Positions 5,824 through 44,311 of a stretch of DNA of 64,000 nucleotides are shown here, piece after piece (the stretch's first letter is position 1; each line of letters opens with the position of its first letter). The stretch is taken from positions 1-64,000 of IMG/VR virus record IMGVR_UViG_3300009104_000006. One strand, written 5' to 3'. The translations under genes were made by a program, and so were the position numbers. Origin of the DNA: a virus. Under the pieces are notes generated by a model that ran no database searches, had not been told where the DNA came from, and was given only the letters and a program-made list of their open reading frames with translations.

Positions 5824-5846
5824 TTGGTATTTAAACGAAGATAGTA
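5824..5846 (+). promoter_or_regulatory. Conserved 23-bp motif, copy 1 (putative viral early promoter)
   Basis: TTGGTATTTAAACGAAGATAGTA, identical in 9 copies; upstream of the 5875 gene. Confidence 0.8.
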
Positions 5847-5874
5847 TAGTGTATTTGCCGGACAACGGCGGAGA

Positions 5875-6636
5875 ATGAAAATGAATATGACAAGGAAACT
5901 GACAATGATTATGAAAGATTTGGTGGATGCTCTCATCCGAGTATGGGGGGGAGAGAGTATAACTCTCGACTTCGACTGCTCCGGTGCGGCACCCGTCAAG
6001 GTTGGCTCAACACGAGCCGATGGAACGATTGTAGGCCCATACAAGCCTACCAAGACCCAAGCCAAGAATGCCCTGCATAGATACATCAAGGATGCGGTTG
6101 CTAACCAAAAGGCAGCCAGCAACCTGCCGGTCAAGTGCGACCATGCTGGTGCAATCAAGGCGAGCAAGGTCAAATTCACACCATCAGCAAAGACGGGCAA
6201 AGTGCCTGTGCTTGCTTACCACATGAACAAACTGCACGGCGATGCGAAGCGTGCTTTGAAGGCGAGCAAGCGACAGGCTGGACTTGAGAAGGCCATCGCT
6301 GACGGCGGCGTGTGGATAGCACGCGGTGTCTTCGACAAGAATGGCGACATTCGTGGCTACCCAAGCCAAAAGAAGGCAGCCGCAGCATGGTGTCGCACCT
6401 TCATCCCACCTACGGATGGAGTGCAGTGGTTCGAGCGAGAGGATGCAAAAGACCTACGAAAGGTCGGTCGCACCCACACTCAGCGAGCGGCTTGGCTCAT
6501 CATGGATGGCCTCACCATCACCACTGAGGGCGGACTCAGCCAAGACGAGGTAGTCCTCATGGCCGCAAAGGAGTTCGGCTTCAAGGGCAAGACGGTGAAG
6601 GGCGCACAGGCGTTCCTTGACCGCAACGTCGCTTGA
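5875..6636 (+). CDS. Basic Lys/Ala-rich hypothetical protein, stand-alone transcription unit
   Basis: 253-aa ORF behind motif copy 1 and a GGAG SD; C/G-rich third positions unlike neighbouring genes; no family recognised. Confidence 0.75.
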   Translation: MKMNMTRKLTMIMKDLVDALIRVWGGESITLDFDCSGAAPVKVGSTRADGTIVGPYKPTKTQAKNALHRYIKDAVANQKAASNLPVKCDHAGAIKASKVKFTPSAKTGKVPVLAYHMNKLHGDAKRALKASKRQAGLEKAIADGGVWIARGVFDKNGDIRGYPSQKKAAAAWCRTFIPPTDGVQWFEREDAKDLRKVGRTHTQRAAWLIMDGLTITTEGGLSQDEVVLMAAKEFGFKGKTVKGAQAFLDRNVA

Positions 6637-6659
6637 ATAGGCTCACACCGACTACGCAA

Positions 6660-6891
6660 CCGCCCCCTGTCCAAGCGGCAGGGGTGCGGCAACACCCTCA
6701 CAAACAGGGGGGCAGGGCGCGACCAGCCAGCGATGGCGGCGATGCCCTGTCCTCCTACCCACACGAACCTGCTGATGTCCTTTGGTGGTGCTTAGGACTT
6801 GCCCGTTGGCTACAACCAACGGGAGCGGCGTGATATGGGGAGCGCACCTCCCACCCTCGCCCCGCACTCGCGGGGTGGGGGCATTTTTTTT
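6660..6891 (+). ncRNA. Putative structured ncRNA or structured 3' UTR (at least 5 stems)
   Basis: Stems 6660-6689; 6706-6719/6743-6756 (14 bp, all 3 non-Watson-Crick pairs are G-U) capped by GCCA-GCGA-TGGC (GNRA loop); 6777-6798; 6802-6823 (perfect 8 bp); 6854-6881. Confidence 0.6.
6854..6891 (+). terminator. GC-rich hairpin followed by T8
   Basis: CCCTCGCCCCGC-ACTC-GCGGGGTGGGGG then CA and T8 at 6884-6891. Confidence 0.7.
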
Positions 6892-6924
6892 GGCTTGGCT
6901 TCATGCTACACGCGCGGGCTAAGT

Positions 6925-7039
6925 CAGACCGCAGACTGTATGGTATCTGAGAGCAGACCGCAGCCGTATGCGTGGGCTATCTGAGCAGACCGCAGGGCAT
7001 CTGAGAGCAGACCGCAGGGCATCTGAGAGCAGACGGCGG
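6925..7039 (+). repeat. Tandem ATCTGAGAGCAGACCGCAG(GGC) repeats
   Basis: CAGACCGCAG at 6925, 6954, 6986 and 7008, variant at 7030; GCAGACCGCA is the reverse complement of TGCGGTCTGC, one mismatch from the left-array unit TGCGGTATGC. Confidence 0.85.
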
Positions 7040-7325
7040 GGCTGGTCTTCGTCATTGATGTTCTTCGTTCCACAACCGCAGGCGGTTTATCGTGGCTCAC
7101 AACATCACTTGCCTCGCCCACCCATACGGTTGGTATTCTCATAGAATATCCTCTCACTATCGGAGAGAGATACACGCCCAGTTAGCCTTGACTTAAGTAG
7201 CGATGCTGATTTCGGTGTGTCCTATGCTCCCCCGCATGGTTGTGTATCGCTGATGATTATGCAGACTGTGCTAATTTGCACATACGCACATGAGGACAGC
7301 GCGGATTCGGACAGACGGCAGAACC

Positions 7326-7440
7326 TTTCCGAAGTTTCCTTAGTATTGTCTAAACAAGGAGAATAATAGTGTAGTATAGAGAGGTAGTAGGACAATCGAA
7401 CTGTCCGATTGTATAGACAAGACAATAGAATCATCGGAAA
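7326..7440. repeat. 32-bp imperfect inverted repeat, candidate origin or protein-binding site
   Basis: 7326-7357 TTTCCGAAGTTTCCTTAGTATTGTCTAAACAA vs reverse complement of 7409-7440 TTTCCGATGATTCTATTGTCTTGTCTATACAA (25/32 identical); the same element recurs at 44313-44390. Confidence 0.7.
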
Positions 7441-7532
7441 ACTATGGTATCACACGCACAAAAACAGGATACCACGCTCATGTTGCTGACCCTCAATCCA
7501 AAACCTCGATGAAATCTTGACGAAAAAAGGCT

Positions 7533-7555
7533 TTGGTATTTAAACGAAGATAGTA
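7533..7555 (+). promoter_or_regulatory. Conserved 23-bp motif, copy 2
   Basis: Exact copy heading the run of small early genes. Confidence 0.8.
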
Positions 7556-7566
7556 TAGTGGAATTG

Positions 7567-7698
7567 ATGCTGAATAGTATTACTGAACAAAGAATGGAGT
7601 TGCCCTACCCTTGCACTTGTGCAACAGTAGGGATAGTGAAAGCCAAGTATAGAGGAATGGTTCTATGCACACACTGTAAGATACGGAGGGATGAATGA
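7567..7698 (+). CDS. Small Cys-rich hypothetical protein
   Basis: 43-aa ORF directly after motif copy 2; ATGA overlap with next ORF. Confidence 0.45.
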   Translation: MLNSITEQRMELPYPCTCATVGIVKAKYRGMVLCTHCKIRRDE

Positions 7699-7856
7699 TG
7701 CCCGCCATCGGTAAGATGAGGACACGCTGGCACATCACCTGCTTGTGTGAGCCCACCTACACCAACCAAATGAGGAAGGACAAGGTGCTACACCGCATAG
7801 ATATGCACATCGAAACGTGTCCTGTCTATACTTGGATAATGGAGGGGCGACCATGA
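7695..7856 (+). CDS. Small hypothetical protein
   Basis: 53-aa ORF with ATGA overlaps at both ends. Confidence 0.5.
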   Translation: MMPAIGKMRTRWHITCLCEPTYTNQMRKDKVLHRIDMHIETCPVYTWIMEGRP

Positions 7857-8164
7857 ACAAAGATGAAAATAGGAACACCCCTTATCACAAACTTGAGTGG
7901 ATTCACTTCGCAATTCAAGAGGCTATGAATGGAAACATAGAGGAACTCGACCGAGCACTCCCTCTCGTTGAGGACTTAAGGGAATACTCCATTCAAACAC
8001 GACTCAAAGCAAACGCACCACTACAACTCGCGGAAGTCAATCGGTTGCGTGAATTGTTAAGTGAAACAGAATACCGATTGGAGATAGCCGAAGATGTATT
8101 GGGTCGCTCGGATTGGAATACTATTTACCGTGAGATTATTGACGAGGATGGTGGAGAAGAATGA
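7853..8164 (+). CDS. Hypothetical protein with APLxLAEVxRLR module
   Basis: ATG 7853 overlaps upstream stop; shares NAPLQLAEVNRLRE with the 14.4-15.7 kb paralogs; ends GGEE. Confidence 0.7.
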   Translation: MNKDENRNTPYHKLEWIHFAIQEAMNGNIEELDRALPLVEDLREYSIQTRLKANAPLQLAEVNRLRELLSETEYRLEIAEDVLGRSDWNTIYREIIDEDGGEE

Positions 8165-8403
8165 ACGAAGACGAACACAAAAAGTTAGATGCTTTGATTG
8201 ACGCACACTTCAAGGTGGTGGATATAGATTCAGCCATCCTTGATTATGATAACCATTGGACTTTTGAGGAATACAAAGACATGGTGATGCACGCCGATTG
8301 GCTCATCGATTTATCAAGTGGAAGGACATACCTATTATCTCGCAGATGGGAAGACGACATTCAAGCACGACTACAAAAAATAAAGGAGAGTGAGGAGGAA
8401 TGA
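8161..8403 (+). CDS. Hypothetical protein
   Basis: ATGA-coupled, ends EEE. Confidence 0.65.
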   Translation: MNEDEHKKLDALIDAHFKVVDIDSAILDYDNHWTFEEYKDMVMHADWLIDLSSGRTYLLSRRWEDDIQARLQKIKESEEE

Positions 8404-8636
8404 GCGAGGACAAGCGCCATCCTCCATACACTATGCTCACCATTCGTGAGGTCATAGACACGATGCGTCTTCTCATAGAGAAAGAGGACTGTGAATTAGA
8501 TACGCCCATCGTGTGGTATCACTTAGCAGATGATTGCTTGACCGCTATGACACATGAGTGTTGTCATGTATTTCATGAGGATGAGTCATGGGTGGAACTG
8601 ACTCTCCATAACCCACATGGAGGCGAGGAAGAATGA
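8400..8636 (+). CDS. Hypothetical protein
   Basis: ATGA-coupled, ends GGEEE. Confidence 0.65.
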   Translation: MSEDKRHPPYTMLTIREVIDTMRLLIEKEDCELDTPIVWYHLADDCLTAMTHECCHVFHEDESWVELTLHNPHGGEEE

Positions 8637-8923
8637 GTATGATGAATGAAACAGATGAACACAACAAATGGAAGCATGGATATTGGAGATTGAAGAAAGA
8701 GAACAGCACGCTTAGGCTTAGGCTGGAGGTAGCCACGACGCGCATTGATGAATACAAAGAAGAACATGAGAGAGAAGTCATAGAGTTATGCGAGGAAATA
8801 GATGGGCTACGAAGGCAAGTGATAGAGGCAAGGGCAGGCGCAAGGATGGTTATGCACTTGACTCGTGAAGGCACACTCACTCCTGAAGATGGCGAGTGGC
8901 TGATTGATGAGGTGTATGTATGA
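8633..8923 (+). CDS. Hypothetical coiled-coil protein
   Basis: ATGA-coupled ORF with heptad-like middle. Confidence 0.65.
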   Translation: MSMMNETDEHNKWKHGYWRLKKENSTLRLRLEVATTRIDEYKEEHEREVIELCEEIDGLRRQVIEARAGARMVMHLTREGTLTPEDGEWLIDEVYV

Positions 8924-9096
8924 GCGATTGCAGAACTGAGAGAGTGAGTATCACAGACCACCATTGGGAGATGAGTGATATGTTTTGGGATGAGCCATAC
9001 GAACAGTTCCGAATAACGATTACGTGTAGTAAATGTGGGCGCTCAGGATGGGGCTGGGTTGATTTGCCTGCGATGATAGGAGGCGAGGAAGAATGA
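8920..9096 (+). CDS. Small CxxC hypothetical protein
   Basis: 58 aa, below the ORF-track cutoff; ATGA overlaps; ends GGEEE. Confidence 0.6.
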   Translation: MSDCRTERVSITDHHWEMSDMFWDEPYEQFRITITCSKCGRSGWGWVDLPAMIGGEEE

Positions 9097-9398
9097 GCAG
9101 CCACACTGACCCCGAAGTGATAGGAACGATTTGGTTTGACGATGCTTCGTCTTACCCACAGGCCTTGTCATTCATCGAAGAAGTATCTGAATTACTATGG
9201 GGTGCTAACGATGATGGAACAAGAGAACCTTACTCGATAGAAGAAAGCATTGAAAGGATGAAGGAATATACTCTCAAGTCATACGCTTGGGATTTGTTAG
9301 AGGAACACTTCTTTGTTGCTGATTGGGATATGGATAACGACACGGAAGAAAAGTATGAGATGCGCGAACTGATGAACCGACTGATGGGAGGCGAGTGA
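9093..9398 (+). CDS. Hypothetical acidic protein
   Basis: ATGA-coupled ORF. Confidence 0.65.
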   Translation: MSSHTDPEVIGTIWFDDASSYPQALSFIEEVSELLWGANDDGTREPYSIEESIERMKEYTLKSYAWDLLEEHFFVADWDMDNDTEEKYEMRELMNRLMGGE

Positions 9399-12071
9399 AT
9401 GATTACACCAAACAAAGACGACATGATGAGGATGGTAAGGGCGTTCGTGTCCATTCATCACGAAGTGAATAGCATTCACATCAAAGACGACATTGGACCT
9501 AACGCACCGGATGCTCCCTTCTTCAAGCGAGTGGCTGCTAAGGATGAGATGGATGAGGAAGACTACATCGAGATGAGCCAACGCTTCCGCAAATACATCG
9601 GCACTCAATTACCTGAGATTATGGAGATAGCGGGCTACGCACCTACTACTGATTGGGGTAAAGCATTAGATGGACTACATCAGATAGGTGAGGAAGCGAA
9701 AGAGAAGAGGCTTGAGCGTGAGAAGATACAACGAGAGTATGCAAAGAAATTGAGCAAGGGTGAGCAGAAGGTGAATAGTTATGTGGATGACCTCATTACC
9801 CAGAAGGGTTGCGAGTCATACTTCACACCTCTATCCGATAGCGAACTGAAGTCCTTGAAGAATGAACTCTTAGACATAGGTATAGATGTAGCGTCAGTCA
9901 ATGAGTTAGTGGATGGTGCTAACGAGAGTGGGTTGAGTAAGTTAGAATACTTCAAGTCGCAGTTCTCTCTCGACGTGGAGGAATACGAAGAAGTATGGTA
10001 TAGCAAGAACGACTACCAACAAAGATACCCACGTAAGAGTAAGAGATTGAAACTTGTATGGAAGGGGCGCAACACCAAGTTATACTATGACCTCAAGACG
10101 GCAGTGCCTTTCCCTTCGTTTAAGTATCAAAACTATACCATGTCTTGCTCGCTCGATAGCATGGTTATCGAGAAGGTATCTTCTATACTATCCAAGCATG
10201 GCTACGACACAAGCAAACTCGATGTTGTCGGTGCATCAATCAAGACTACTGAACCTAAGACTAACAGTAGTGGGTATGCAGTGCGTTTGAAGGGCGATGT
10301 TTTGTTCCTCAAACTACCTTACAACGATACTACGTGTAGGAATGTAGTCAAAGGACTCAACGGGCGTAAGTGGATTCCCGATGCTAAACAATGGACTGTT
10401 CCAATAAGCGAGGCTAATATCTTCATCAAGAAACTCAAAGAGGCAAGTGAATGGGATGATAACCCCGCCTCCTTACTTACTGAATTGGAAGGGATAGATG
10501 AACTGAATGATTACCTAAAGGGTAAGGCTGAACGCATAGCAATCAGTGGTGCAGCCACGCTCACAGATGATAAGGTAGTCAAGGAGATGGAGAGTAGGCT
10601 GGCTAAGATATTTCCAGACGGTCGCACACTCTATCCATTCCAATACGCAGGCGTGCGCTTTGCTGAGTTAGCACCTAACAAGTCGTGTCTAATTGGAGAT
10701 GACATGGGTGTAGGTAAGACAATTCAAGCACTCGCTTATGCTGCACTGCATGAGGAACTATGGCCTGTGCTTGTAGTATGCCCTGCGAATGTGAAATACA
10801 ATTGGCTCAAGGAGATACAGACTTGGCTTCCACACGTAGGTGTTCAAGCAGTGAAGACAGGAAAGGAAGACATAGAATGTGAAACATTCACCATCATTAA
10901 CTACGACTTGGCGAAGCGACAACAGGATAATCTTCATGCACTCGGAGCGAAACTAATCATCTTCGATGAATCTCACTACCTCAAGAACTCAAAGGCACAA
11001 AGAACACAGGCTTGCGTAGCATTAGCAGGAGAGGCTGACTCGGTGTTGTGTCTAAGCGGCACAGCCATTACCAACAGGCCTGTTGAACTATTCACTACGC
11101 TGGAAATGATTAGACCTGCTGAATACAAAGGGAACTTCTTTCAGTATGCAAAGAGATACTGTGGTGCTGAACAAAATAGATGGGGATGGGATTTCACAGG
11201 AGCATCTAACATCGAAGAACTACATGAGAAACTACGTGATTGTATGATTCGCAGACTCAAGAAGGAAGTGTTGGATGAACTACCAGATAAGGTGCGTCAG
11301 TTTATTCCCGTCGTTCCTAATCAGAAAGAGATGGCGGCATACAAGCGAGCACATAGAACATGGATGACTGACTACGCTCACTACAAAGCAGAAGGGAGAA
11401 TCCCTCTTGGCTTCGTTCTCAATATGCTGACTGACTTACGCCACCATGCGGGAACGCTCAAGGTAGGAGCGACCATTGATTGGGTGGCTGACTACAAGGA
11501 ACAGAATGAAGACAAACCAATCATCATATTCTATCATCACAAAGATGTAGGGGCTGGCTTGTTAGACATGATGACTAACGATAAGAGATACAACCACAAG
11601 AGATGGAGGGTAATAGCAGGCGGCACACCATCAATCAAGCGACAACAATATGTTGAACAGTTCCAAGCAGGTATGTTAGATGGATTACTTTGCTCCACGA
11701 TAGCAGCAAAGGAAGGACTTACTCTTACTGCCGCAGACACAGTAGTGTTCATCGAGCGCGAGTGGGTGCCCGGATGGGAAGAGCAAGCCGAAGATAGAAT
11801 CAACAGGATAGGACAGGACAACGACACAGTGTGGGCGATTTACTTATCGGTCGTAGGAACGATAGACGAAAAGTTCGACAGGATAGTGGAGGAAAAGAGG
11901 CGCATAACTTCCGCCGTTCTCGATGGTGGAGATGTAGGAGAAGATAGAGCAGGGATTGCGATTGCCCTGCTCAAAGCGATGGTCGATGCCGGAGAAATAC
12001 CTGCCGATATGCTGAAGCATATGGGTAGCAAACCAAAGGCACACGATAACAAGGAGGAAGAAGAAGAATGA
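9399..12071 (+). CDS. SNF2/SWI2-family helicase (SMARCAL1/HARP-like)
   Basis: GDDMGVGKTIQAL, IIFDESHYLKN, LSGTAITNRP, QAEDRINRIGQ; HARP-like segment RKWIPDAKQWTVP. Confidence 0.92.
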   Translation: MITPNKDDMMRMVRAFVSIHHEVNSIHIKDDIGPNAPDAPFFKRVAAKDEMDEEDYIEMSQRFRKYIGTQLPEIMEIAGYAPTTDWGKALDGLHQIGEEAKEKRLEREKIQREYAKKLSKGEQKVNSYVDDLITQKGCESYFTPLSDSELKSLKNELLDIGIDVASVNELVDGANESGLSKLEYFKSQFSLDVEEYEEVWYSKNDYQQRYPRKSKRLKLVWKGRNTKLYYDLKTAVPFPSFKYQNYTMSCSLDSMVIEKVSSILSKHGYDTSKLDVVGASIKTTEPKTNSSGYAVRLKGDVLFLKLPYNDTTCRNVVKGLNGRKWIPDAKQWTVPISEANIFIKKLKEASEWDDNPASLLTELEGIDELNDYLKGKAERIAISGAATLTDDKVVKEMESRLAKIFPDGRTLYPFQYAGVRFAELAPNKSCLIGDDMGVGKTIQALAYAALHEELWPVLVVCPANVKYNWLKEIQTWLPHVGVQAVKTGKEDIECETFTIINYDLAKRQQDNLHALGAKLIIFDESHYLKNSKAQRTQACVALAGEADSVLCLSGTAITNRPVELFTTLEMIRPAEYKGNFFQYAKRYCGAEQNRWGWDFTGASNIEELHEKLRDCMIRRLKKEVLDELPDKVRQFIPVVPNQKEMAAYKRAHRTWMTDYAHYKAEGRIPLGFVLNMLTDLRHHAGTLKVGATIDWVADYKEQNEDKPIIIFYHHKDVGAGLLDMMTNDKRYNHKRWRVIAGGTPSIKRQQYVEQFQAGMLDGLLCSTIAAKEGLTLTAADTVVFIEREWVPGWEEQAEDRINRIGQDNDTVWAIYLSVVGTIDEKFDRIVEEKRRITSAVLDGGDVGEDRAGIAIALLKAMVDAGEIPADMLKHMGSKPKAHDNKEEEEE

Positions 12072-14224: not shown

Positions 14225-14247
14225 TTGGTATTTAAACGAAGATAGTA
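14225..14247 (+). promoter_or_regulatory. Conserved 23-bp motif, copy 3
   Basis: Exact copy, preceded by a T8 run at 14202-14209 (likely terminator). Confidence 0.8.
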
Positions 14248-14266: not shown

Positions 14267-14443
14267 ATGAAAATAGGTAAATGGATTAACTTCGCAAGGT
14301 GGAGTGATAGAGCAAACTGCATAGGCAAGGGGCGCATACGTAATTGCGAAGTGCAAGATGATGCTCTAATGATTGATATGACGCTCGATGGTGTGCGCTA
14401 CATCGGCACGCTATACCAATACAAGGAGGATGAAGAAGAATGA
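14267..14443 (+). CDS. Small hypothetical protein
   Basis: 58 aa MKIGKW...KEDEEE; ATGA overlap with next gene. Confidence 0.6.
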   Translation: MKIGKWINFARWSDRANCIGKGRIRNCEVQDDALMIDMTLDGVRYIGTLYQYKEDEEE

Positions 14444-14757
14444 TTGATACACACAAATACGAAGGACACACGGAAGGACTGTGGGAATACAATACCGACG
14501 ATGATGGTTGGACACTTGCGGCTATCCATGAACGGAACGACCCTGACCGAGATGAGTTCATGGTGCTGATGACAAAACCGAATGGCGACCCTTACCTCAC
14601 AATGAATCCTGACCTCGCACTCATAGCAGACGCACCACTACTCCTTGAAGAAGTCAAGGACTTACAGAAGAAATTAGACAACCTGCGTGAGTATTGTCAT
14701 GCAGAAGGTTATGACATTTTCAATTGGGAAGTAAAGAACATTGAGGTGATTGAATGA
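14440..14757 (+). CDS. MIDTDKY-family paralog 1
   Basis: MIDTHKYEGHTEGLW...IADAPLLLEEVK. Confidence 0.7.
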   Translation: MIDTHKYEGHTEGLWEYNTDDDGWTLAAIHERNDPDRDEFMVLMTKPNGDPYLTMNPDLALIADAPLLLEEVKDLQKKLDNLREYCHAEGYDIFNWEVKNIEVIE

Positions 14758-16244: not shown

Positions 16245-16267
16245 TTGGTATTTAAACGAAGATAGTA
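16245..16267 (+). promoter_or_regulatory. Conserved 23-bp motif, copy 4
   Basis: Exact copy upstream of the 16293 gene. Confidence 0.8.
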
Positions 16268-21290: not shown

Positions 21291-21313
21291 TTGGTATTTA
21301 AACGAAGATAGTA
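21291..21313 (+). promoter_or_regulatory. Conserved 23-bp motif, copy 5
   Basis: Exact copy followed by ATAGGAGAATGAGAAACATG. Confidence 0.8.
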
Positions 21314-21321: not shown

Positions 21322-21861
21322 ATGAGAAACATGACAAAAATAATGAAAATGATTTGTGGAACGGATTTCGGGCATCCTCGAACAGGGAGAACGTCGAGAA
21401 CGTGGATTTCTGCTTTAGAGAGCGAGCGGGGATTCTATGGAATCCGTAATAAGGAAACAGGAGAGATACACGTGCCGAGCGTATACTACGTCGAGTTTTG
21501 TCGAGGCGAATCGCAGACGTATTGGGATAGTGAGACGAACACCACCTACATCAAAGGCATATGGAAGATAACAAGATTTAACGACGACATTAAATTGTTG
21601 CTAAAGCGGTATCGCAAGAAAGAGAGCGACTTTGAGATTATTGCATTCAGCATGAAGGACGGCAAAGGACTTCCATTCAATCAAGGGTATGGTGGAATAA
21701 ACCGCATATACGAGGCTGGTCCATCACCTATGCAAAGAGATGACGCACAAAACATTCAACAAATCGTGGTCTTGCAGACCTCATTAACCCCCTCAGATAA
21801 GGGCGAAGTGCAGGTAGTCAAGAAGAATGCGATTGTTGCATTAGAAGTGAAGGAGGTATGA
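21322..21861 (+). CDS. Hypothetical protein
   Basis: Start reassigned to ATG 21322 (or 21331) downstream of motif copy 5. Confidence 0.65.
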   Translation: MRNMTKIMKMICGTDFGHPRTGRTSRTWISALESERGFYGIRNKETGEIHVPSVYYVEFCRGESQTYWDSETNTTYIKGIWKITRFNDDIKLLLKRYRKKESDFEIIAFSMKDGKGLPFNQGYGGINRIYEAGPSPMQRDDAQNIQQIVVLQTSLTPSDKGEVQVVKKNAIVALEVKEV

Positions 21862-26840: not shown

Positions 26841-27493
26841 AACACTACAATTACTTTCACGGAAACTATGGCAAGCCCACTTACATCACCGAAGTGCCTC
26901 GTGTTCGTATTGGCGGAACGCGAGAGGAAATCGCTGAGTTCATAGGACTTATGGCACAAAGACAGACCGCCTTCGGGAATGAGGAATCACACATACACAA
27001 AGTGAATAACGCACTCAATGGGAAGAAATCGCCGGGCCATCCCGCGATTCCTACGCATCCTGATGGACTCCATATATGTCTTCGTTTGGAACAAAAAGGC
27101 AACGTATACGTTAGCCGCACCTATATGTGGGGCTTTAATTACAAAACGGAAAGAAGAGTTAGCACCTTTGAGAGGAATAATAGGAGGCTTCCTTCGACGA
27201 ATAATGTCCTCATTCTTTCGCTTGTGCTAAAGCGATGGCCTCCCGCAGCAGAACAACGCACCCCATCAGACTACCTCGAAAGAATAGAACGCGAACTTGA
27301 AACGGGAGAATCGCATATTAACAGAACGTTTGAACCTATCAATTCGACGCTTGTCGAACCCTCGACAATAGAAGAGGATGATATGCCTGTCTTAGATGAG
27401 AAGAATATGAAACCTTGGTATGCGTATCATACTCCCATGTATAAGCCCAAGACTGAGGATGAAGAAGTATTTGAGGATGAAAATCATGGCTAA
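26837..27493 (+). CDS. Hypothetical protein
   Basis: 218-aa ORF, ATGA-coupled. Confidence 0.65.
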   Translation: MKHYNYFHGNYGKPTYITEVPRVRIGGTREEIAEFIGLMAQRQTAFGNEESHIHKVNNALNGKKSPGHPAIPTHPDGLHICLRLEQKGNVYVSRTYMWGFNYKTERRVSTFERNNRRLPSTNNVLILSLVLKRWPPAAEQRTPSDYLERIERELETGESHINRTFEPINSTLVEPSTIEEDDMPVLDEKNMKPWYAYHTPMYKPKTEDEEVFEDENHG

Positions 27494-27812
27494 GACACCG
27501 ACTCGTATTCACATATACATGGGAGCCTTTTACCCTCTATGGGAAGACGGTAGCCTATGTAAAAATGCAAAGAAAGAAGCAGGTTGGAGCGACGCTTACA
27601 TGAGCGAATCCAAAGGTCTGTATCAGAAATTACCGAGATGTGAGGACTGCACATCTGAACTTGAGCGAAGGAATAAACTGCGAGAACAATGGTATGTTAA
27701 TGAGAACGTGGATAGAGCGAAACCAAAGAAACTCGGCATCTATGCAAAACGCACACCCACGCGTGATGATAGTCCTCTCTATTTGAGAGAGTATCTTAAT
27801 CTTGGTATTTAA
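27486..27812 (+). CDS. Hypothetical protein whose stop codon lies inside motif copy 6
   Basis: ATG 27486; ends LGI* encoded by CTTGGTATTTAA. Confidence 0.6.
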   Translation: MAKTPTRIHIYMGAFYPLWEDGSLCKNAKKEAGWSDAYMSESKGLYQKLPRCEDCTSELERRNKLREQWYVNENVDRAKPKKLGIYAKRTPTRDDSPLYLREYLNLGI

Positions 27813-27824
27813 ACGAAGATAGTA
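27802..27824 (+). promoter_or_regulatory. Conserved 23-bp motif, copy 6
   Basis: Exact copy followed by ATGGGAGAATGAGAAACATG. Confidence 0.8.
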
Positions 27825-27832: not shown

Positions 27833-28126
27833 ATGAGAAACATGGCAAGAAAATACGATGAAGAAATAGCAAAACTAACAGACGAACGACAAGCACTTGC
27901 GGGTAAATTAAGCGACCTCATGAAGCAAAGAGACATACAGAAGTATTTGGAGGTCTGCCGCGACGAGGGCCACGTATGGACTCTAACGACAGTAAACTCA
28001 GATATGTGGGAGATTGGGAATGTCCACCTCCTTTGCACCCGATGTAGTGCTGAGTGCATAACAGAAGGCGGAACATTAGGTTGGCAGAAGTCTGATGTTG
28101 AGGACTTGATGGAAATGTTGGAGTGA
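27833..28126 (+). CDS. Hypothetical coiled-coil/Zn-binding protein
   Basis: C...GH.W...CTRC pattern. Confidence 0.6.
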   Translation: MRNMARKYDEEIAKLTDERQALAGKLSDLMKQRDIQKYLEVCRDEGHVWTLTTVNSDMWEIGNVHLLCTRCSAECITEGGTLGWQKSDVEDLMEMLE

Positions 28127-28550: not shown

Positions 28551-29249
28551 ATGAACAAGGAATCAGTGTGTAAAATCTGCGACGAAGCCTTCACTTACGA
28601 AGTGAAACGTGGACGCACGCCGAGTATGTGCGCCAAAGAATCATGCTTGAAGAAATACAGGAAGCAAATGAGGAAACCTAAACCTCGCGTAGTGCGAAAG
28701 CGCATTTGTGAGAACGAAGACTGCGATACTGAAATTACACAGAAAGGAAAAGGGCGCACAATCAAGCGGTGTGAAGAATGCCGGACCAAACTCAAGAAGA
28801 AGCAAAATGCTGAATATCGAGCCAAGACATTCAGACCGATTATTCGTGAACAAGGCATTTGCATTGACTGCGAAACTCCTTTGGGAACTAAGAAAGGACG
28901 AGGTAAACTCGCTACAAGATGCCCTGTGTGTCAATTGAAGCAACGCAACGAAATCGCAAGAGTCTCGGCATTGAAGAACTACGACCCCGTTATACGGGTC
29001 TATACTTGTGAGAAATGTAAGCAAGAGAAAGAGCAGAAAGGACGAGGCAAACTGCGCAAAACCTGCCCCGATTGCATGAACAACAAGAAGGTAAAGAGGG
29101 ATGCGAAGAGTGAATTAGAGTCTTTACTTGAGATGAAGCAAGCAAAACAGATTGAGAAAGTCGAAGCCATGATACAGGAGGCGGAAGACGAATATGACGA
29201 CGTTGGACACGCTATGTGGAGCGGAATACTCAAATCTATGGATGATTGA
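28551..29249 (+). CDS. Basic multi-Zn-finger protein (4 repeats)
   Basis: Four C-x2/4-C...(K/R)GR...CxxC-like modules. Confidence 0.7.
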   Translation: MNKESVCKICDEAFTYEVKRGRTPSMCAKESCLKKYRKQMRKPKPRVVRKRICENEDCDTEITQKGKGRTIKRCEECRTKLKKKQNAEYRAKTFRPIIREQGICIDCETPLGTKKGRGKLATRCPVCQLKQRNEIARVSALKNYDPVIRVYTCEKCKQEKEQKGRGKLRKTCPDCMNNKKVKRDAKSELESLLEMKQAKQIEKVEAMIQEAEDEYDDVGHAMWSGILKSMDD

Positions 29250-30739: not shown

Positions 30740-30762
30740 TTGGTATTTAAACGAAGATAGTA
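30740..30762 (+). promoter_or_regulatory. Conserved 23-bp motif, copy 7
   Basis: Exact copy. Confidence 0.8.
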
Positions 30763-31427: not shown

Positions 31428-32673
31428 GTTAGCAATTGTATGCGAACGCATACGCTTAGGCGATTCTGAATTAACACTGACGCTGGACGAGGCCGAAGCA
31501 AGACAAGCATACGCCCTCTTGTTTCCTAATGAAACCTTGACCGAAAGACAATTAGTTTTTAAAGTGGCTAACGAATTAGGCGTTCCATACGAAGTCCTCA
31601 TGTCCTTAGAGGCGAGCAGTATATCGGTTTTACTTGCGTCTGAAAGCAGTGCCTCTAATTCAAGCGAGTGGTCGTTAGAGGAAGCGCTCCGCGTTAGGAA
31701 TGCAACCACCACACTCTTATTTTCATTCCTTTCCTTAAGCAAACAGATGGACGAAATAGATGCGCGCTTATTTTGGGATAGTGTTTTAGGCAAGCGAATG
31801 CCCATCTCTTCCTTGCGTTTTCTCAAGTCTCTCAACCCCGAAGTGCCGCACGAAACGATAACTAATAGCCGGTCTTTCCTTACAGATTCTGAAATAATTG
31901 CCTCTCTATATGGGAATACAGATGCCCTTCTTGACCCCAAACGGTGGTATGAGAAGCCGACTGCTGGATTACGTAAGCGCAAATGGAAGGCTTGGAATGA
32001 ATATACAACGGTTGCCTTAGATACATTTCAAGCGATACCGAGCGGCACAGTTACGGTCGAATATGACGAAGATGAAAATATAATCATAGAAAAAGTAGGA
32101 AAGACAATTACCGATATAGCATATCCCGAACACCCAACCCTTTCTCTCAAAGAGCGACTCGACAAATATGCAGACTCACACGAAGAGGCAAACATAGCGT
32201 GGCCCGAAATGATACCGTCGTGGGATAGTATAGTCAAGCGAGAAGGCACGATAAGGTTCCCAAATACGGGAGCATTCTCTCCAACGGAATACGGAGGCTA
32301 TATTCTCGTAAAGCAATCGCATATCAGCAAACTACGCATCGCATCATACAAGTCTGGAGATGCGCTATACGTGAAATTACACGCACTTGATGGAGACGAA
32401 TACATTGATGTTGGACTTCTCACGGTTCAAATACCCTCAGAACGAGCGGCAGTGATATTCAACATAGAAAGAATGATTGGTTCTAATACAGAAGAAGCCA
32501 AGTCGTGGCGAGAAATCTCCGATGACGTTTGCATTGTCTTAGGCGTCAGTTCTCCTTTTGTGGATAGGAGGACAAATACACTGAGCGAGCCATCTCTCGT
32601 TGAGGTGATGAGCGATATGGGTATATCTGACTTGACACAATATGTAGATTTGGTGGGTATAGATGCAAACTAA
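31414..32673 (+). CDS. Degenerate archaeal-type DNA ligase homolog (DNA-binding domain + OB fold, no KxDG)
   Basis: MRFSELAIVCERI, YALLFP and EIDARLFW resemble the ligase N-terminal domain; C-terminal TLSEPSLVEVMSDM resembles motif VI; no motif I recognised. Confidence 0.5.
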   Translation: MRFSELAIVCERIRLGDSELTLTLDEAEARQAYALLFPNETLTERQLVFKVANELGVPYEVLMSLEASSISVLLASESSASNSSEWSLEEALRVRNATTTLLFSFLSLSKQMDEIDARLFWDSVLGKRMPISSLRFLKSLNPEVPHETITNSRSFLTDSEIIASLYGNTDALLDPKRWYEKPTAGLRKRKWKAWNEYTTVALDTFQAIPSGTVTVEYDEDENIIIEKVGKTITDIAYPEHPTLSLKERLDKYADSHEEANIAWPEMIPSWDSIVKREGTIRFPNTGAFSPTEYGGYILVKQSHISKLRIASYKSGDALYVKLHALDGDEYIDVGLLTVQIPSERAAVIFNIERMIGSNTEEAKSWREISDDVCIVLGVSSPFVDRRTNTLSEPSLVEVMSDMGISDLTQYVDLVGIDAN

Positions 32674-33091
32674 TGACCGACGCGAGGAATGGATGGGGTT
32701 AGGCATCATCCTAACGGAGATACGCTTTAGAACATGGGTCGAAAAGAGGGCTGACGCTCGATGGGGCTATCGTGTGAGAAGGAGAATATGCTGGCGTTCC
32801 TTATTCAAAACGGGAACGGGTAGTCAATTACAATGCGTGAAGATATTTCTCACGCCTTTTGGTATTGAACTCAAGGAGAAATACGAAGAACGCGAAGAGA
32901 TAGAAAAATGGTTTCATCTCTTGAATCGCCAATGGAGCGAAGCGATAACAGATAGGGCGGGGTTGAATATGATGGAATGGGTTACTGCAAATCCCATTCC
33001 GCGTAAATCTGCAAATGACGCGGATTTCCTTAATTGGATTGAGTCATTCGATAATGAAAAAGAGATGCTTGAAAATGCCTTTGGTATTTAA
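32663..33091 (+). CDS. Hypothetical protein, possibly a degenerate LAGLIDADG fold; stop inside motif copy 8
   Basis: MGLGIILTEIRF...WGYRVR pattern weakly LAGLIDADG-like; ends FGI*. Confidence 0.5.
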   Translation: MQTNDRREEWMGLGIILTEIRFRTWVEKRADARWGYRVRRRICWRSLFKTGTGSQLQCVKIFLTPFGIELKEKYEEREEIEKWFHLLNRQWSEAITDRAGLNMMEWVTANPIPRKSANDADFLNWIESFDNEKEMLENAFGI

Positions 33092-33103
33092 ACGAAGATA
33101 GTA
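33081..33103 (+). promoter_or_regulatory. Conserved 23-bp motif, copy 8
   Basis: Exact copy 9 nt before the clamp-loader ATG. Confidence 0.8.
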
Positions 33104-33112: not shown

Positions 33113-34072
33113 ATGGACCTCGCAGAAATAGCGATACCGAAAACTTTGACCGAATTGGTTGGGTTGGACGAACTCGTTGCAGACGTAAATGGGTGGGCTG
33201 ATGCAGATGATTGGCCTCAAGCCCTTCTCTTCTATGGGCCTTCGGGAACGGGTAAGACGAGTTCGGCCCACGTCATAGCACGAACACTACTCGATGATTG
33301 GTTCAACGATATGAACTTCATTGAGAGCAACGCCAGCGACGATAGGGGCATAGACTTCATTCGCAACGAACTCAAGTCTGCGATGCGTAGCAAACCTCTC
33401 GGAACGCCGAGAAAAATCATCCTACTCGATGAGGCAGACGGCCTCACACCAAGCGCGCAAGACGCTATGAGACAATTGATAGAGAAGTATAGTCATAATG
33501 CGATGGTCATAATGACGTGCAACGAATTAGAGAAGATACGCCCAGCCATACGCTCACGATGCAAAGCGTATGCGTTTACGCCTGTGCCAGCAGGACCGGG
33601 GGCGATGCGTCTAATCTCGGTGCTACATAATGCTGATGAGAACTTTGTGGGTTCGTCGGTTTTAGCCGATAAACTTCAAAATCTGATTGAACTCATGAAC
33701 GGTGATATGCGTGCATCTATTATGTTCCTCGATTCAATTGATATAGAGCAATTAGGAGAGAGACTATCACGCTTAGAGGAAACAATGGGTGAGGATGCGA
33801 TTGCCCACGCCATAGGAGACGAGTGGTGGAAAGTGCGCAATAACTTCCATGAGATGCTCAAGAACGGGCGTTCCCTACATCAAGTGATGAGGAACTTCTA
33901 TCTGAACATATACGATTACTTTGATGAAGAGGATAACCTCGATTCTATATGGGATATAATGGCGGCATACGGCGACGTGATGACGCATAGATACACATGG
34001 CCCGGCGATGACTACTCCTACTGCGATTATGCGGTGGCGAAAATGAGAGAAAAGGTGAAGAAAAATGAATGA
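33113..34072 (+). CDS. rfcS: Replication factor C small subunit-like clamp loader
   Basis: LLFYGPSGTGKT, NASDDRGID, LDEADGLT..AQ.A.R, IRSRC. Confidence 0.92.
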   Translation: MDLAEIAIPKTLTELVGLDELVADVNGWADADDWPQALLFYGPSGTGKTSSAHVIARTLLDDWFNDMNFIESNASDDRGIDFIRNELKSAMRSKPLGTPRKIILLDEADGLTPSAQDAMRQLIEKYSHNAMVIMTCNELEKIRPAIRSRCKAYAFTPVPAGPGAMRLISVLHNADENFVGSSVLADKLQNLIELMNGDMRASIMFLDSIDIEQLGERLSRLEETMGEDAIAHAIGDEWWKVRNNFHEMLKNGRSLHQVMRNFYLNIYDYFDEEDNLDSIWDIMAAYGDVMTHRYTWPGDDYSYCDYAVAKMREKVKKNE

Positions 34073-37759: not shown

Positions 37760-37860
37760 GCCAGCATGAGTAAGGAAATCGGACGTTGTGGTAAGTGCCA
37801 CAAGATTGGGCCTTTGTGGTCTAACGAAAATCAGATACTATTGTGTAGGAAGTGCGCTCA

Positions 37861-40254: not shown

Positions 40255-40259
40255 TTGAA

Positions 40260-40391: not shown

Positions 40392-40512
40392 TGTTGTCTC
40401 AATGCGTATGTGGATGGCATGGTATTACCACAACCTGTATGGTGAACGGAACGCCTACTTGTCCAAACTGTCGAAAACCATTCACCAATATGAGATGTGA
40501 GGGGTGTTCTGA

Positions 40513-41511
40513 ATGAAGTTTAATCCGAATGAAGAGGCTTTCTTTGAGCGGCGCACTGAAGCGCATACGCCGGAACTGCTTGAATCATACAACAGGTCGT
40601 GCTATAATTGGACACCCGACATGAAGGATATGATACTGAGGGCAAGTAAATCGTCTATCAATGACTATGATTGGTGTCCTCATCAATACAAACTCAAGAA
40701 TATCTATCGTCTCTCCGAACCGGAAAACGATGACATGATTCGTGGAACGAACGTGCATAGCATAGTCGAGTATTTCTGGGATAACGTAGGAGCAAAGATT
40801 CCCGAAGCCCTCGTGCTTATGAGAGAAGGAAAGAAGATGCTCGCAAAGGACTTACTGTGGCAGGTAATACCGACACCTCCGCTTCCATACCAATTTGGAG
40901 AAGAAGTAGTCATACGAAAGTGGTTTGATTGGCAGTGGGATAGATTTCTCATTACAGATGGAGAAAATTGGACACCCGTTGGAAACGAAATATCAGCACA
41001 CGGCGTCGTTATGGTGGAAGTGGATGGCGAAGAATATCCTGTCCATCTTCGAGGATTCATTGATACCATCTTCTCGGATGGAGAGGGCGGCTTCATACTG
41101 ATGGAACTTAAGACAGGTAAATGGCGAGAGAAGAAGACTGCCACTAAGATGAGAGTGGAAATGCAGATTTACAGAATGATGCTTGAAGAAGGAGAATACA
41201 CTGATTTTCTCCCTATCACACATTGGGCTTGGGAGTTCCCAAGAGGATATGTGAATGGCGGCGATAGGGCCGAATGGGAATTAGAAGAAACTGGAACACG
41301 AAAGACGCAATTCGCCCCTCGAACTGCGATGAGGAAATTACAGAACCTTGTGAAAGGACACCTATATGATTCATTTGAACCAAAAATACGAGAATGGAGA
41401 ACACCCAACGGAGAGACAATGACAAATTGCTCTTACTGTTCGTTTATGGAACTGTGTCCGGCTTGGGGAATGAATGAAGGAGAAAACGAATATGAGAATG
41501 AAGAAGAATGA
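40513..41511 (+). CDS. Cas4-like/RecB-family PD-(D/E)xK nuclease
   Basis: SKSS...WCP, RGTNVH, LRGFID, MELKTGK, MQIY, CSYCSFMELCP (four-Cys Fe-S pattern). Confidence 0.88.
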   Translation: MKFNPNEEAFFERRTEAHTPELLESYNRSCYNWTPDMKDMILRASKSSINDYDWCPHQYKLKNIYRLSEPENDDMIRGTNVHSIVEYFWDNVGAKIPEALVLMREGKKMLAKDLLWQVIPTPPLPYQFGEEVVIRKWFDWQWDRFLITDGENWTPVGNEISAHGVVMVEVDGEEYPVHLRGFIDTIFSDGEGGFILMELKTGKWREKKTATKMRVEMQIYRMMLEEGEYTDFLPITHWAWEFPRGYVNGGDRAEWELEETGTRKTQFAPRTAMRKLQNLVKGHLYDSFEPKIREWRTPNGETMTNCSYCSFMELCPAWGMNEGENEYENEEE

Positions 41512-41815
41512 ACTGAAAGAAAAAGTGAATAGAACGGCAGACATTTTGTCTGAGATGTTGAAAGGAGAAGATGAGAACATGGAAGTGAATGTAACTTACG
41601 GTATGTTGGGAACGGGAGATTTCAAGGCCCAATTAACCAAGCAGATGACGCTTGATTACTACACCGAAGAGAACGCAGAAGTTCCTTATTTTCACGTTCT
41701 TGACGTTGTGATAGACAAGCGCGCATTTACGTATACTGAGAAGAACTTGTTTCCCGAAGGGCCAGCGTCCTTAGCAGTAAAAATCCATCGAAGATACAAG
41801 GATATGGCTGAGTAA
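41492..41815 (+). CDS. Hypothetical protein with PIP-box-like QMTLDYY
   Basis: ORF in the replication operon. Confidence 0.6.
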   Translation: MRMKKNELKEKVNRTADILSEMLKGEDENMEVNVTYGMLGTGDFKAQLTKQMTLDYYTEENAEVPYFHVLDVVIDKRAFTYTEKNLFPEGPASLAVKIHRRYKDMAE

Positions 41816-41816
41816 T

Positions 41817-42920
41817 ATGGCGTTTGCGTCATTGATACGCGACTTCCCAAGAGAAGTCCTTGAAGTAAGTTCGAGCGGTAAGCACGGAGGGCGTTATATC
41901 GTCCGCGATTGGGAAGCGTTGGAAAAGTATTGGAGAGGGAAGAACGGGTCTGGTAATGCGTATCACACTGCATATGGGTATCGAAGCACCCAAGCGCCCA
42001 AGCACCATAGAGTCGAATACAATACTGCAATAGTCAGACACTTTGTAATGGACTTTGACTGCAAGGACTTCAAGAATGGAGGTGTTGATGTTGATTTCTC
42101 CTTCATGCAAGAACAAGTGCAACGCCTTCACAGACACCTATTGGACAATGACTACCAACACTACATCTTCTTTACAGGAGGTGGATTTCACATCTATATT
42201 CCTTTGTCTGAAGCATTCCTACCAATAGACGGATTGGAGGTAACAAGAATCAAAAGTGCCGGAAGAAGGCTAATGAAACGCTGGCATGATAACCTCAACC
42301 TCTCATGTAACGACCCTACTGTTGCATTCGACCTTGCGGGAATGATACGCATCCCTAACTCCTACAACGCAAAGAGAGGGTGTTGGGTTATACCGATTGA
42401 AAGTGATGAACTCATGTCCTTAGATTTCGAGACTATTTACGAAATAGCACAGGATTACAGACGTGGCTACATCGTTCAAGGAAGCAAACCACTCAAACTC
42501 ATTCTGCCTAAGAAGAATAATGCCTTTAGCAAGAAAGAGCGAAAGAATGTATCTGATTTACCCACAGTCTCGTTAGGCTCAATCAAGGTTCTGCCTTGTA
42601 TAGCCCAAGCGGCTCTTGGAGCAGGTAATCCAACACATAGAGCGAGATACCATCTCGCATCCTATCTCGCAGACAGGCTTCGTTGGTTCTTTCCGATTGA
42701 TAATGTGCCGAAAGAAGACTTGCCGAAACACGTCGAGCAGATTGTGCAGATATGCTCGGAGCAAGGATGGGTCGATTGGAACGAAAACATAACGAGAACC
42801 CAAGTCGAGAGCATAGTGTTCAAGGGTTATGCTCATGCACGTTGTGAAACTTTGATGCAAGAAGGCCTGTGTGCAGGTAAATGCAAGTATTACGATGGAA
42901 CTGCGGAGGATTTGCTATGA
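41817..42920 (+). CDS. Archaeo-eukaryotic primase, catalytic domain fused to a PriL-like Fe-S domain
   Basis: VMDFD, TGGGFHIY, MIRIPNSYN, then LPCI...H.AR...ARCETL..GLC.GKC. Confidence 0.88.
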   Translation: MAFASLIRDFPREVLEVSSSGKHGGRYIVRDWEALEKYWRGKNGSGNAYHTAYGYRSTQAPKHHRVEYNTAIVRHFVMDFDCKDFKNGGVDVDFSFMQEQVQRLHRHLLDNDYQHYIFFTGGGFHIYIPLSEAFLPIDGLEVTRIKSAGRRLMKRWHDNLNLSCNDPTVAFDLAGMIRIPNSYNAKRGCWVIPIESDELMSLDFETIYEIAQDYRRGYIVQGSKPLKLILPKKNNAFSKKERKNVSDLPTVSLGSIKVLPCIAQAALGAGNPTHRARYHLASYLADRLRWFFPIDNVPKEDLPKHVEQIVQICSEQGWVDWNENITRTQVESIVFKGYAHARCETLMQEGLCAGKCKYYDGTAEDLL

Positions 42921-43132
42921 GAGAGTGTAGCGAATGTGGCGCCAAGTTAAGCCATAGGAACCCCCAAAGAAAAGCGAATGGAAAATACTCATTCAGAAAA
43001 TTATGCCAGCCTTGTTTCAATAATCCAAAGGCCGAAGACCGTTGCATCGCCTTAACTGCGAAAGGGAAGAGGTGCAAACTTAGACGTCTTCCCGAATCAA
43101 AAAGGAATATGTGTGCGATGCACAGGAGGTGA
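42917..43132 (+). CDS. Small basic Zn-finger protein
   Basis: CSEC, CQPC, C.A.T.KG.RC...C.MH. Confidence 0.6.
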   Translation: MRECSECGAKLSHRNPQRKANGKYSFRKLCQPCFNNPKAEDRCIALTAKGKRCKLRRLPESKRNMCAMHRR

Positions 43133-43136
43133 ACAG

Positions 43137-43610
43137 ATGCAACCAATCAACGTATCTAATACGACTCTATCCACATACAAGGGGAGAAGACACCGTAAGT
43201 TCGACGCTAAACAAAAGAAGCGGCATGACTTTGGAAAAGCACAGTGTGTGATTTGTGATGAGGTATTTACCAAATATACACATAACACAAAAGTGTGTTC
43301 TAAAGAGTGTAGGAAGAAAAAGAAAACACGCAATAATCGCAAGTATAACGAAGAAAATCCTGAGAAGCAAAAAGCGTATGCACGCAAGTATCGTGAAAAG
43401 AATCGTGAGAAGATAAAAACGGAAGCACGCAAGTGGCGCGAAGAGAATCGTGAGAAAGAAGCGGCGAGAAGCCGCAAGTATCGCAAAGAGAATCGTGAGA
43501 AGACAAATGCGTATGGCCGCAAGTATTACGAAAAGAATCGTGAGAAGGTATTAGCGAGAGACCGCGCACGATATCACGCAAAGAAAAAACAAGAGGAAGT
43601 GAACAGATGA
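43137..43610 (+). CDS. Basic protein with Zn finger and five 15-aa repeats
   Basis: CVIC...CSKEC then RK(Y/W)xxxNxEK x5 at a 45-bp period. Confidence 0.65.
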   Translation: MQPINVSNTTLSTYKGRRHRKFDAKQKKRHDFGKAQCVICDEVFTKYTHNTKVCSKECRKKKKTRNNRKYNEENPEKQKAYARKYREKNREKIKTEARKWREENREKEAARSRKYRKENREKTNAYGRKYYEKNREKVLARDRARYHAKKKQEEVNR

Positions 43611-44287
43611 CTGACTTATTCATAGACACCAACGAGAGAGGCAGATTATGCGAATCCGTGATACGCAAGGCCGAAAGTGCAGGCTTGTGTGTTGAAAGAA
43701 AGACGCTTGTGGTTGGCGATTACCTGTTAGGCGCAGCGTGCATCGAAGCCAAATCGGTTAGCGACTTCCTCCATTCTTGCGACACCGGACACCTGTGGAA
43801 GCAATTGGATAACATGGATGCTAATTACGAACGCTTCTTCTTATTGATACACGGCAGTATATCAGCCTACGTCAAAATGAACAAGAAGCATTCATACAGC
43901 CGCATCCAAAGTAAGATGGTAGGACTCATAGCGCGCACTATGGCAGATTTTGACTGCCAAGTCTTGTTTACTCCAAACGTCAGTGAAGCCGCCTCATTCG
44001 TGGTGAAACTACACAACAAACTCCACAAGCCAGCGTCTCAACATGGCGCACAGGGAATACGTAGGGTCAGCACAAACGATGTGCGGAAGGACATACTTCT
44101 GTGCATACCCGGCATAGGCTCAGTCATGGCTGATAGATTACTCAAGGAATGTGGCTCTATTGAAGAGATGCTTTTCTTAGACTCACTCAAGAAGGTGAAA
44201 GGGTTGGGCGACAAGTCAGCGAAGAAAATCATCAAGGCATTAACCAGCGAATCTCCTGTTCACATCGAAAGGAAGGTGTTCAATTGA
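43607..44287 (+). CDS. ERCC4/XPF (Hef-like) endonuclease with HhH motifs
   Basis: IDTNE, GDY, IEAKSVSDF, IPGIG, VKGLG. Confidence 0.88.
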   Translation: MTDLFIDTNERGRLCESVIRKAESAGLCVERKTLVVGDYLLGAACIEAKSVSDFLHSCDTGHLWKQLDNMDANYERFFLLIHGSISAYVKMNKKHSYSRIQSKMVGLIARTMADFDCQVLFTPNVSEAASFVVKLHNKLHKPASQHGAQGIRRVSTNDVRKDILLCIPGIGSVMADRLLKECGSIEEMLFLDSLKKVKGLGDKSAKKIIKALTSESPVHIERKVFN

Positions 44288-44288
44288 T

Positions 44289-44311
44289 TTGGTATTTAAA
44301 CGAAGATAGTA
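44289..44311 (+). promoter_or_regulatory. Conserved 23-bp motif, copy 9
   Basis: Exact copy upstream of the MCM-like gene. Confidence 0.8.

Follow-up and report, generated by a model that had tools for sequence, protein, structure and literature searches.

The 102,093-bp viral genome of IMG/VR record IMGVR_UViG_3300009104_000006, which was judged complete, carries nine identical copies of a 23-bp motif at gene heads in its replicative block, all of them within the first 64 kb of the record, the 64,000 nt stretch that we refer to as the window. With moderate confidence, we propose that these motifs constitute the virus's own class of promoters for the replicative (early/middle) block, used by the host RNA polymerase (RNAP) and contacted by an additional sequence-specific reader. 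The genes of this genome are leftward between ~5.2 kb and position 1, rightward between 5.9 and 48.6 kb, and again leftward between 102 and 49.5 kb. The rightward, plus-strand replicative block codes for an SNF2 helicase, an ATP-dependent ligase, a family B DNA polymerase (PolB), and an RFC-like clamp loader, as well as a PD-(D/E)XK nuclease, an ERCC4 nuclease, and a group II chaperonin, while the leftward, minus-strand virion block codes for terminase, portal, prohead protease, and an HK97-type capsid protein together with two large open reading frames (ORFs) of 1889 and 5515 amino acids (aa). Magroviruses, which are viruses of Marine Group II archaea, have been described with the same layout (PMC5434244). 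Since size, gene set, and layout all match, we assign this genome to the magroviruses, as a tailed virus that infects Marine Group II archaea. A megablast search against GenBank phages gave no match, and the closest annotated relatives of its PolB are those of HF1/HF2-type haloarchaeal tailed viruses, at 24% identity.

The nine motifs, first pointed out in an initial annotation made from the letters of the window, lie on the plus strand at 5824, 7533, 14225, 16245, 21291, 27802, 30740, 33081, and 44289; the number expected from shuffled sequences is 0, even when 3 mismatches are allowed. The initial annotation had noticed none in the structural block, and this absence extends to the whole 102,093-bp record, where a search of both strands at up to 3 mismatches gave no further copy beyond the 5.8-44.3 kb block. 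No late-promoter class was recognizable in the structural block either. Every copy is co-oriented with the genes and either lies 0-25 nt past the upstream stop codon or overlaps that stop; as noted earlier, the motif supplies the stop of two upstream ORFs (27420-27812 and 32663-33091) through a GGT ATT TAA inside it. Since an additional 5´ T is common to eight of the nine copies, the unit can be taken as 24 nt. It consists of a 5´ part, (T)TTGG, a TATA-like octamer that is TATTTAAA in all nine copies, and a 3´ part of ~11 nt, CGAAGATAGTA. The two subclasses previously described for the sequence immediately downstream are also borne out, with TAG(T/A)G following copies 1, 2, 4, 7, and 8 and AT(A/G)GGAGAATGAGAA following copies 3, 5, and 6; copy 9 belongs to neither. 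A T-run precedes the motif at one of the nine copies only, and there are almost no terminators between the units.

The initial annotation had suggested motif discovery in related viruses, and relatives were indeed found to bear their own versions of the signal at the heads of orthologous genes. Two IMG/VR contigs that are 93-96% identical to this genome have seven and two exact copies. In an alignment with the 93% relative, 115 of 1217 positions (9.4%) have changed in the 200-nt flanks of the seven shared copies, compared with 0 of 161 in the motif (P ~1e-7). Contigs with a PolB 56-68% identical to the one encoded here each have their own repeated signal in the same places: TTGACTATATAAACCGAGATTGAAT, in 11 copies, in the contig denoted G007 and TTGACTACTTAAACAAAGAATGAAA, in 12 copies, in G006, in both cases confined to the replicative block and to its coding strand. 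Eight of the nine copies head genes whose orthologues in G006 and in G007 are motif-headed as well (27-73% protein identity), so the motif sites are old. Copy 2 is the sole copy that lacks a motif-headed orthologue in these two contigs. The type found in this genome can be told from that of G007 at ~8 of 26 positions, with every difference fixed throughout the 9-12 copies of a genome, a pattern of concerted evolution at orthologous sites.

When nine lineages were aligned on the octamer, the shared core was found to consist of TGAC (TTTGG in this genome), a TATATAAA-like octamer, and a C, followed by a looser G-W-W-T-G-A-R theme. The octamer of the eight other lineages, at the same place, is TATATAAA, TACTTAAA, or TATAAAAG. 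In the distant lineages L054, L056, and L069, the 3´ half of the motif varies among copies. Reading TTGAC...TATAAA as a bacterial sigma-70 or extended -10 signal was ruled out, given that TTGAC abuts the TATA, which is the wrong spacing.

The nine copies in the window, with the positions of the octamer and of the gene start that follows, are:

Copy 1, 5824..5846, plus strand: octamer at 5828-5835; 253-aa gene with its ATG at 5875, 39 nt beyond the octamer, and GGAGA just 5´ of it; the first signal of the rightward block, in the divergent control region, with a head gene orthologous to the first motif-headed gene of G006 and G007.
Copy 2, 7533..7555, plus strand: octamer at 7537-7544; followed by short ORFs only (43 codons from an ATG 22 nt after the octamer).
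Copy 3, 14225..14247, plus strand: octamer at 14229-14236; a T8 run 23 nt upstream; ATG at 14267 (58 aa), 30 nt after the octamer.
Copy 4, 16245..16267, plus strand: octamer at 16249-16256; 810-aa gene whose ATG (16293) is 36 nt beyond the octamer and has GGAGA 7 nt ahead of it.
Copy 5, 21291..21313, plus strand: octamer at 21295-21302; in-frame ATG at 21322 (19 nt after the octamer) and an ATG served by a Shine-Dalgarno (SD) site at 21331.
Copy 6, 27802..27824, plus strand: octamer at 27806-27813; gives the upstream ORF its TAA; in-frame ATG at 27833 (19 nt after the octamer) and SD-served ATG at 27842.
Copy 7, 30740..30762, plus strand: octamer at 30744-30751; conserved 104-aa gene whose ATG (30788) is 36 nt beyond the octamer and has GGAGA 9 nt ahead of it.
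Copy 8, 33081..33103, plus strand: octamer at 33085-33092; gives the upstream ORF its TAA; RFC-like clamp-loader gene with its ATG at 33113.
Copy 9, 44289..44311, plus strand: octamer at 44293-44300; a 115-nt leader, then a 470-aa gene with its ATG at 44416.

At copy 3, a 4-codon frame opens at an ATG 19 nt after the octamer and overlaps the ATG of the 58-aa gene. Three adjacent small genes in the operon of this copy (at 14754, 14933, and 15460 of the window) share their first 21 nt (ATGATTGACACAGACAAATAC) and form a tandem paralogue array. The leader behind copy 9 (window 44312-44415) is kept at 115-118 nt in G006 and G007 and has ATTCCGA-type repeats ahead of the 470-aa gene, which is 73% conserved.

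The distance between the motif and the start codon was assayed across 50 non-redundant motif heads from 11 lineages, counting to the ATG of the gene from the octamer's last base. The distribution is bimodal, with 26 heads at 18-22 nt (17 of them at exactly 20), none at 23-26 nt, and 24 at 27-39 nt; the probability of the 20-nt peak is low (P 3.5e-11). All heads that lack an SD site are at 20 or 21 nt, including the clamp-loader head in eight lineages in which the intervening sequence has diverged. A given orthologous head may be at 20 nt in one lineage and at 33-36 nt in another. GGAG-type SD words in the genes of these viruses peak at -15 to -11 from the start codon. Given that the ATG is locked at one distance, that 2-5 extra bases are avoided, and that leaders of SD length come next, the spacing fits a mixture of leaderless and leadered mRNAs made by an archaeal TBP/TFB/RNAP machinery that would start about 20-22 nt after the octamer. 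In M. jannaschii, the TATA's 3´ edge lies 23 +/- 2 nt from the start in 94% of 131 mapped promoters (PMC2699501), a comparison to which the register chosen for the octamer adds up to 2 nt. The predicted spacing agrees with this value and with that of the mapped repeats of halovirus HF2 described below (PMC8707807). The predicted start is 8-10 nt past the end of the 23-mer and falls on the clamp-loader ATG at copy 8, which is exactly 20 nt after the octamer, has no SD site, and is a predicted leaderless start, and on the in-frame ATGs of copies 5 and 6.

Together with the placement of the copies, this spacing suggests how the motif might work. Host TBP would bind the TATA-like octamer (TATTTAAA here, TATATAAA in relatives), and host TFB and RNAP would assemble there and start transcription about 19-23 nt after it. 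Where the start codon coincides with the start site, as at copy 8 and probably at copies 5 and 6, the mRNA would be leaderless, and the other heads would have a short leader bearing an SD site. With terminators nearly absent, read-through from upstream promoters would serve the head genes too. A further sequence-specific reader may contact the TTTGG/TTGAC upstream of the octamer and the ~11 nt downstream of it. The invariance of the motif amounts to ~46 bits over 23-24 positions, compared with ~12 bits for the whole promoter in M. jannaschii, where the transcription factor B recognition element (BRE) contributes little (2.6 bits; PMC2699501), and it is this excess, in addition to the concerted change between lineages, that points to an extra reader on both sides of the TATA. 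A footprint on both sides is as expected of a TFB-like factor; the reader would most likely be a virus-encoded regulator or TFB-like specificity factor and less likely a factor specific to the host lineage. The initial annotation had proposed a dedicated viral transcription factor or polymerase, and the first half of that proposal is made plausible by the invariance, the concerted lineage-specific change, and the operon-heading placement, while a T7-like viral polymerase is unsupported, as described below.

Four observations weigh against our proposal. The motif has no purine-rich BRE, as had been noted, with (T)TTGG in its place here and (T)TGAC in relatives. SD-like G-runs are found 8-17 nt after the octamer in many heads, upstream of the predicted start, and in some lineages the G-run is aligned with the conserved WTGRR element of the motif. 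Plausibly, these G-runs serve read-through transcripts only or belong to the promoter; use by read-through transcripts is plausible because the copies abut or overlap the preceding stop and a T-run is present at only one. Pfam scans of essentially all ORFs gave no candidate reader from a recognized DNA-binding family. Finally, the intergenic-repeat promoters of halovirus HF2 are active in Haloferax without any viral gene, and the conserved start region is needed for this basal activity (PMC8707807), so that an extra reader is not needed for activity.

The last two points, along with the variable 3´ half of the motif in L054, L056, and L069, are also what would be expected if the motif were simply a very strong promoter, optimized for host TBP, TFB, and RNAP, with no viral reader at all. 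Pfam models for TFIIB and TBP had no match in six-frame translations of the genome, and the TFIIB model had none in five relatives, in line with such a host-only promoter. Its identity within a genome would then come from selection for strength combined with copying or gene conversion, and the differences between lineages would track host TFB and RNAP. However, the parallel change of eight positions at eight orthologous sites is hard to reach by independent selection. We also know of no efficient gene conversion between 24-bp patches lacking flanking homology, which counts against the copying step. The information content of the motif, about four times that of mapped archaeal promoters (PMC2699501), is a further difficulty, and we consider a promoter shaped by the host machinery alone possible but doubtful.

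Promoters that occur in many near-identical copies and co-vary from one related virus to another are the hallmark of T7-group phages, and the initial annotation had drawn attention to a T7-like string (ACGA...TATA-G) in the motif. This string is present here, but it is private to this lineage: the GTATAG/GTAATAG motif end is found only in this genome's lineage, relatives end in TGAAT or TGAAA, and what they keep instead is the canonical TATA octamer. The T7 promoter is conserved from -17 to +6, with its TATA at -4..-1, ending at the start site. In the magrovirus motif, 11-12 nt separate the conserved TATA from the motif end downstream of it, and the TATA is ~20 nt upstream of leaderless ATGs instead of ending at +1. 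The G that directly follows GTATA, which had been put forward as the start for a T7-like enzyme, is 12-14 nt after the octamer, and a start there leaves the spacing pattern unexplained. The likeness to T7-group promoters thus lies in the length of ~23 bp, the many near-identical copies, and the versions that differ between related viruses; the differences are that no cognate polymerase gene was found here, that the likeness in letters is limited to one lineage, and that the motif heads the early/replicative block, not late genes.

We also considered the more general possibility of a promoter for a virus-encoded or virion-delivered RNAP, following the logic of T7, N4, or crAss-like phages, with a start at or just past the motif end. 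N4 and crAss-like phages have virion RNAPs with early promoters, and this genome resembles them in having a giant ORF in the virion block and a private signal before early genes. The 5515-aa and 1889-aa virion-block ORFs are without an assigned fold, and the SD sites 4-8 nt past the motif end would fall inside an mRNA started there, both of which would suit such an enzyme. The initial annotation had recognized no RNAP gene in the window, and the same now applies to the whole genome: neither a T7-type nor a multisubunit RNAP family was detected in six frames or among the ORFs, and the Pfam scans gave no RNA polymerase and no classical regulator family. The six-frame search with PF00940 (T7-type RNAP) had no match, but its control matched nowhere, so this particular search was weak.

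The giant ORF, which the initial annotation had named as a place where an RNAP might be hidden, spans genome positions 61032-77579 on the minus strand (61032-64000 in the window and onward). It is conserved over its full length at 59-68% identity in distant relatives, with >100 homologous contigs, and is uniformly rich in G, S, T, and N without internal repeats. No conserved DxDGD-type motif or other RNAP feature was found in it, and it had no match in Pfam, PHROGs, PDB sequences, or Atlas. An AlphaFold2 (AF2) model of residues 1601-2200, the best-conserved 600, built from 26 sequences, was unusable (predicted local distance difference test score, pLDDT, 34). From its composition, the ORF looks structural. 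Unlike the N4 and crAss-like systems, no polymerase motif or fold is shown in the giant ORF, and the motif promoters are not hairpins. To our knowledge, no archaeal virus encodes its own RNAP. Furthermore, the T7-like string is not kept in relatives while the TATA octamer is, a start at the motif end would account neither for the gap at 23-26 nt nor for the 20-nt peak, and HF2-type relatives use host RNAP (PMC8707807). A viral RNAP promoter is distinctly unlikely on these grounds, and host RNAP, recruited through TBP at the octamer, is most likely the best reading, because no RNAP, TFB, or TBP gene was found, the T7 likeness is missing in relatives, the spacing follows the pattern described above, and the TATA octamer is conserved.

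Among the products of the replicative block, one protein drew our attention as a possible reader. The operon headed by copy 6 includes a gene (28551-29249, plus strand) for a basic protein of 232 aa that has, in tandem, four CxxC...CxxC modules of a zinc ribbon plus a helix. Each module bears a K/R-G-K/R-G loop, and the C-terminal tail is acidic. The protein is conserved in all lineages, at 40-50% in seven of them, and its AF2 model has a pLDDT of 87. Neither a sequence-profile search nor Foldseek gave a significant match in PDB. The protein is a nucleic-acid binder, possibly the reader of the motif or equally a single-stranded DNA-binding protein. One could go further and imagine that a virus-supplied, co-evolving specificity device makes the replicative block orthogonal, either as a cryptic RNAP in the 5515-aa or 1889-aa virion proteins that enters together with the DNA or as a factor, such as the four-zinc-ribbon protein, that replaces TFB and redirects the host polymerase. 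We think this improbable; if true, the RNAP form would be the first case of an archaeal virus bringing a transcription enzyme of its own.

Promoters are not the only signals that could be strand-specific and fixed in position just upstream of an SD site or ATG, and a processing site or translational operator within long polycistronic RNAs would have these properties too. Read-through is likely given the lack of terminators, and processed long primary transcripts are known in haloviruses (PMC8707807). In conflict with a signal at the RNA level, no stable or shared fold was found in the motif (z-scores -1.8 to +0.5), the part most conserved across lineages is a DNA-type TATA octamer, copy 1 opens the block, a position that calls for a promoter, and the bimodal spacing suits a start site and not a cleavage site. 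We therefore regard an RNA signal as very unlikely.

Perfect identity and one-strand bias could likewise suit a DNA site with no role in transcription, for instance one used in replication, recombination, packaging, or DNA entry, and an iteron-rich control region adjoins copy 1. Yet all copies are at gene heads, their spacing from the start codon is constrained in many lineages, and the structural half of the genome is without copies, which leaves such a site highly improbable. As for the control region itself, ~12 iterons, TGCGGTATGC(Y), fill its divergent stretch between the leftward block and copy 1 (window 5341-5753), and inverted relatives of the iteron (GCAGACCGCAGGGCAT) lie 1.5 kb away, past the first gene (window 6924-7037). 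The iteron region is a candidate origin or control region.

The closest known system to the promoter class proposed here is that of HF2's intergenic repeats, of class I and class II, the likeness being one of kind and not of sequence. The HF2 repeats are promoters with mapped starts that have a TATA at -26 or an AT motif at -19..-26; they are virus-specific, conserved among relatives, and used by the host polymerase, and virus-encoded factors have been proposed to read them (PMC8707807). Both systems are sets of multi-copy, virus-specific repeats that head transcription units in an archaeal tailed virus and are conserved in place among relatives. The HF2 group also has, in its PolB and head genes, the nearest characterized relatives of those of magroviruses, and its class I repeats span the early-middle region including PolB. 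In both, the TATA is at the archaeal distance from the start (mapped in HF2, predicted here), with conserved sequence between and around the two, and no viral RNAP is recognizable. The HF2 motifs TCTTTAAGTC and CGTCTNNTAGAG are absent from this genome, with no sequence homology between the repeats, and the repeats of HF2, which measure 58 or 29 bp, contain variable positions, compared with 23-25 bp that are letter-perfect in 9-12 copies here. No second (late) class was found in the magrovirus, and activity and starts, which are experimental in HF2, are for the magrovirus what we infer from spacing and conservation. With respect to HF2, the magrovirus motif thus appears to be of the same kind but shorter, letter-perfect, and evolving in concert.

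Set beside a canonical archaeal promoter, with its BRE, TATA, promoter proximal element, and initiator, the motif has in common an 8-bp A/T-rich TATA, a predicted distance to the start of about 20-22 nt (against 23 +/- 2 nt), and a mixture of leaderless and SD-led heads. It differs in having no purine-rich BRE, ~4x the information, a conserved stretch between TATA and start, and lineage versions that are fixed in all copies.

A few further features of the genome and its relatives were noted. A scan of genome contigs with the chaperonin gave no Poseidoniales genome, the top 120 homologues were all viral-type, and a representative search returned thermosomes of which none was assigned to the host. 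A 31-kb contig filed under a Parvibaculum metagenome-assembled genome (L090, NZQM01000043.1) has a chaperonin gene whose product shares 49% identity with that of the virus; this contig is probably magrovirus-like and mis-binned. When the first 25 nt of the copy 8 gene were scanned against metagenome contigs, matches were found in two DNA contigs only. An identical clamp-loader gene head is present in the 116,349 bp metagenome contig Ga0208013_1000061 (L174), which may be a longer version of the 102-kb record. An HMGL-like (pyruvate carboxyltransferase-type) ORF, an unexpected metabolic-type gene at the genome end, is cut off by the left edge of the record (window 3-761, minus strand). A 243-aa SAP-domain protein (L093; E 1e-13, genome 80421-80531, minus strand) is encoded in the structural block; SAP is a DNA-binding motif of eukaryote/archaea type, and its presence among tail genes is unusual.

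In the surface ocean, magroviruses rank with the most abundant viruses, and the Marine Group II archaea that they infect are uncultured. The magrovirus literature that we searched makes no mention of promoters. A private promoter of the kind proposed here would give an operon map of the replicative half of the genome together with corrected start codons, including leaderless ones, and would serve as a probe for 5´-end mapping in metatranscriptomes and as a strong candidate promoter for genetics in Marine Group II archaea. Samples of the transcriptomic kind are mentioned for the Red Sea set in PMC5434244. The view that archaeal viruses depend on the host polymerase is not overturned by the motif. 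Rather, the motif would provide a clean case of concerted promoter evolution, and should lead to the factor that reads it.

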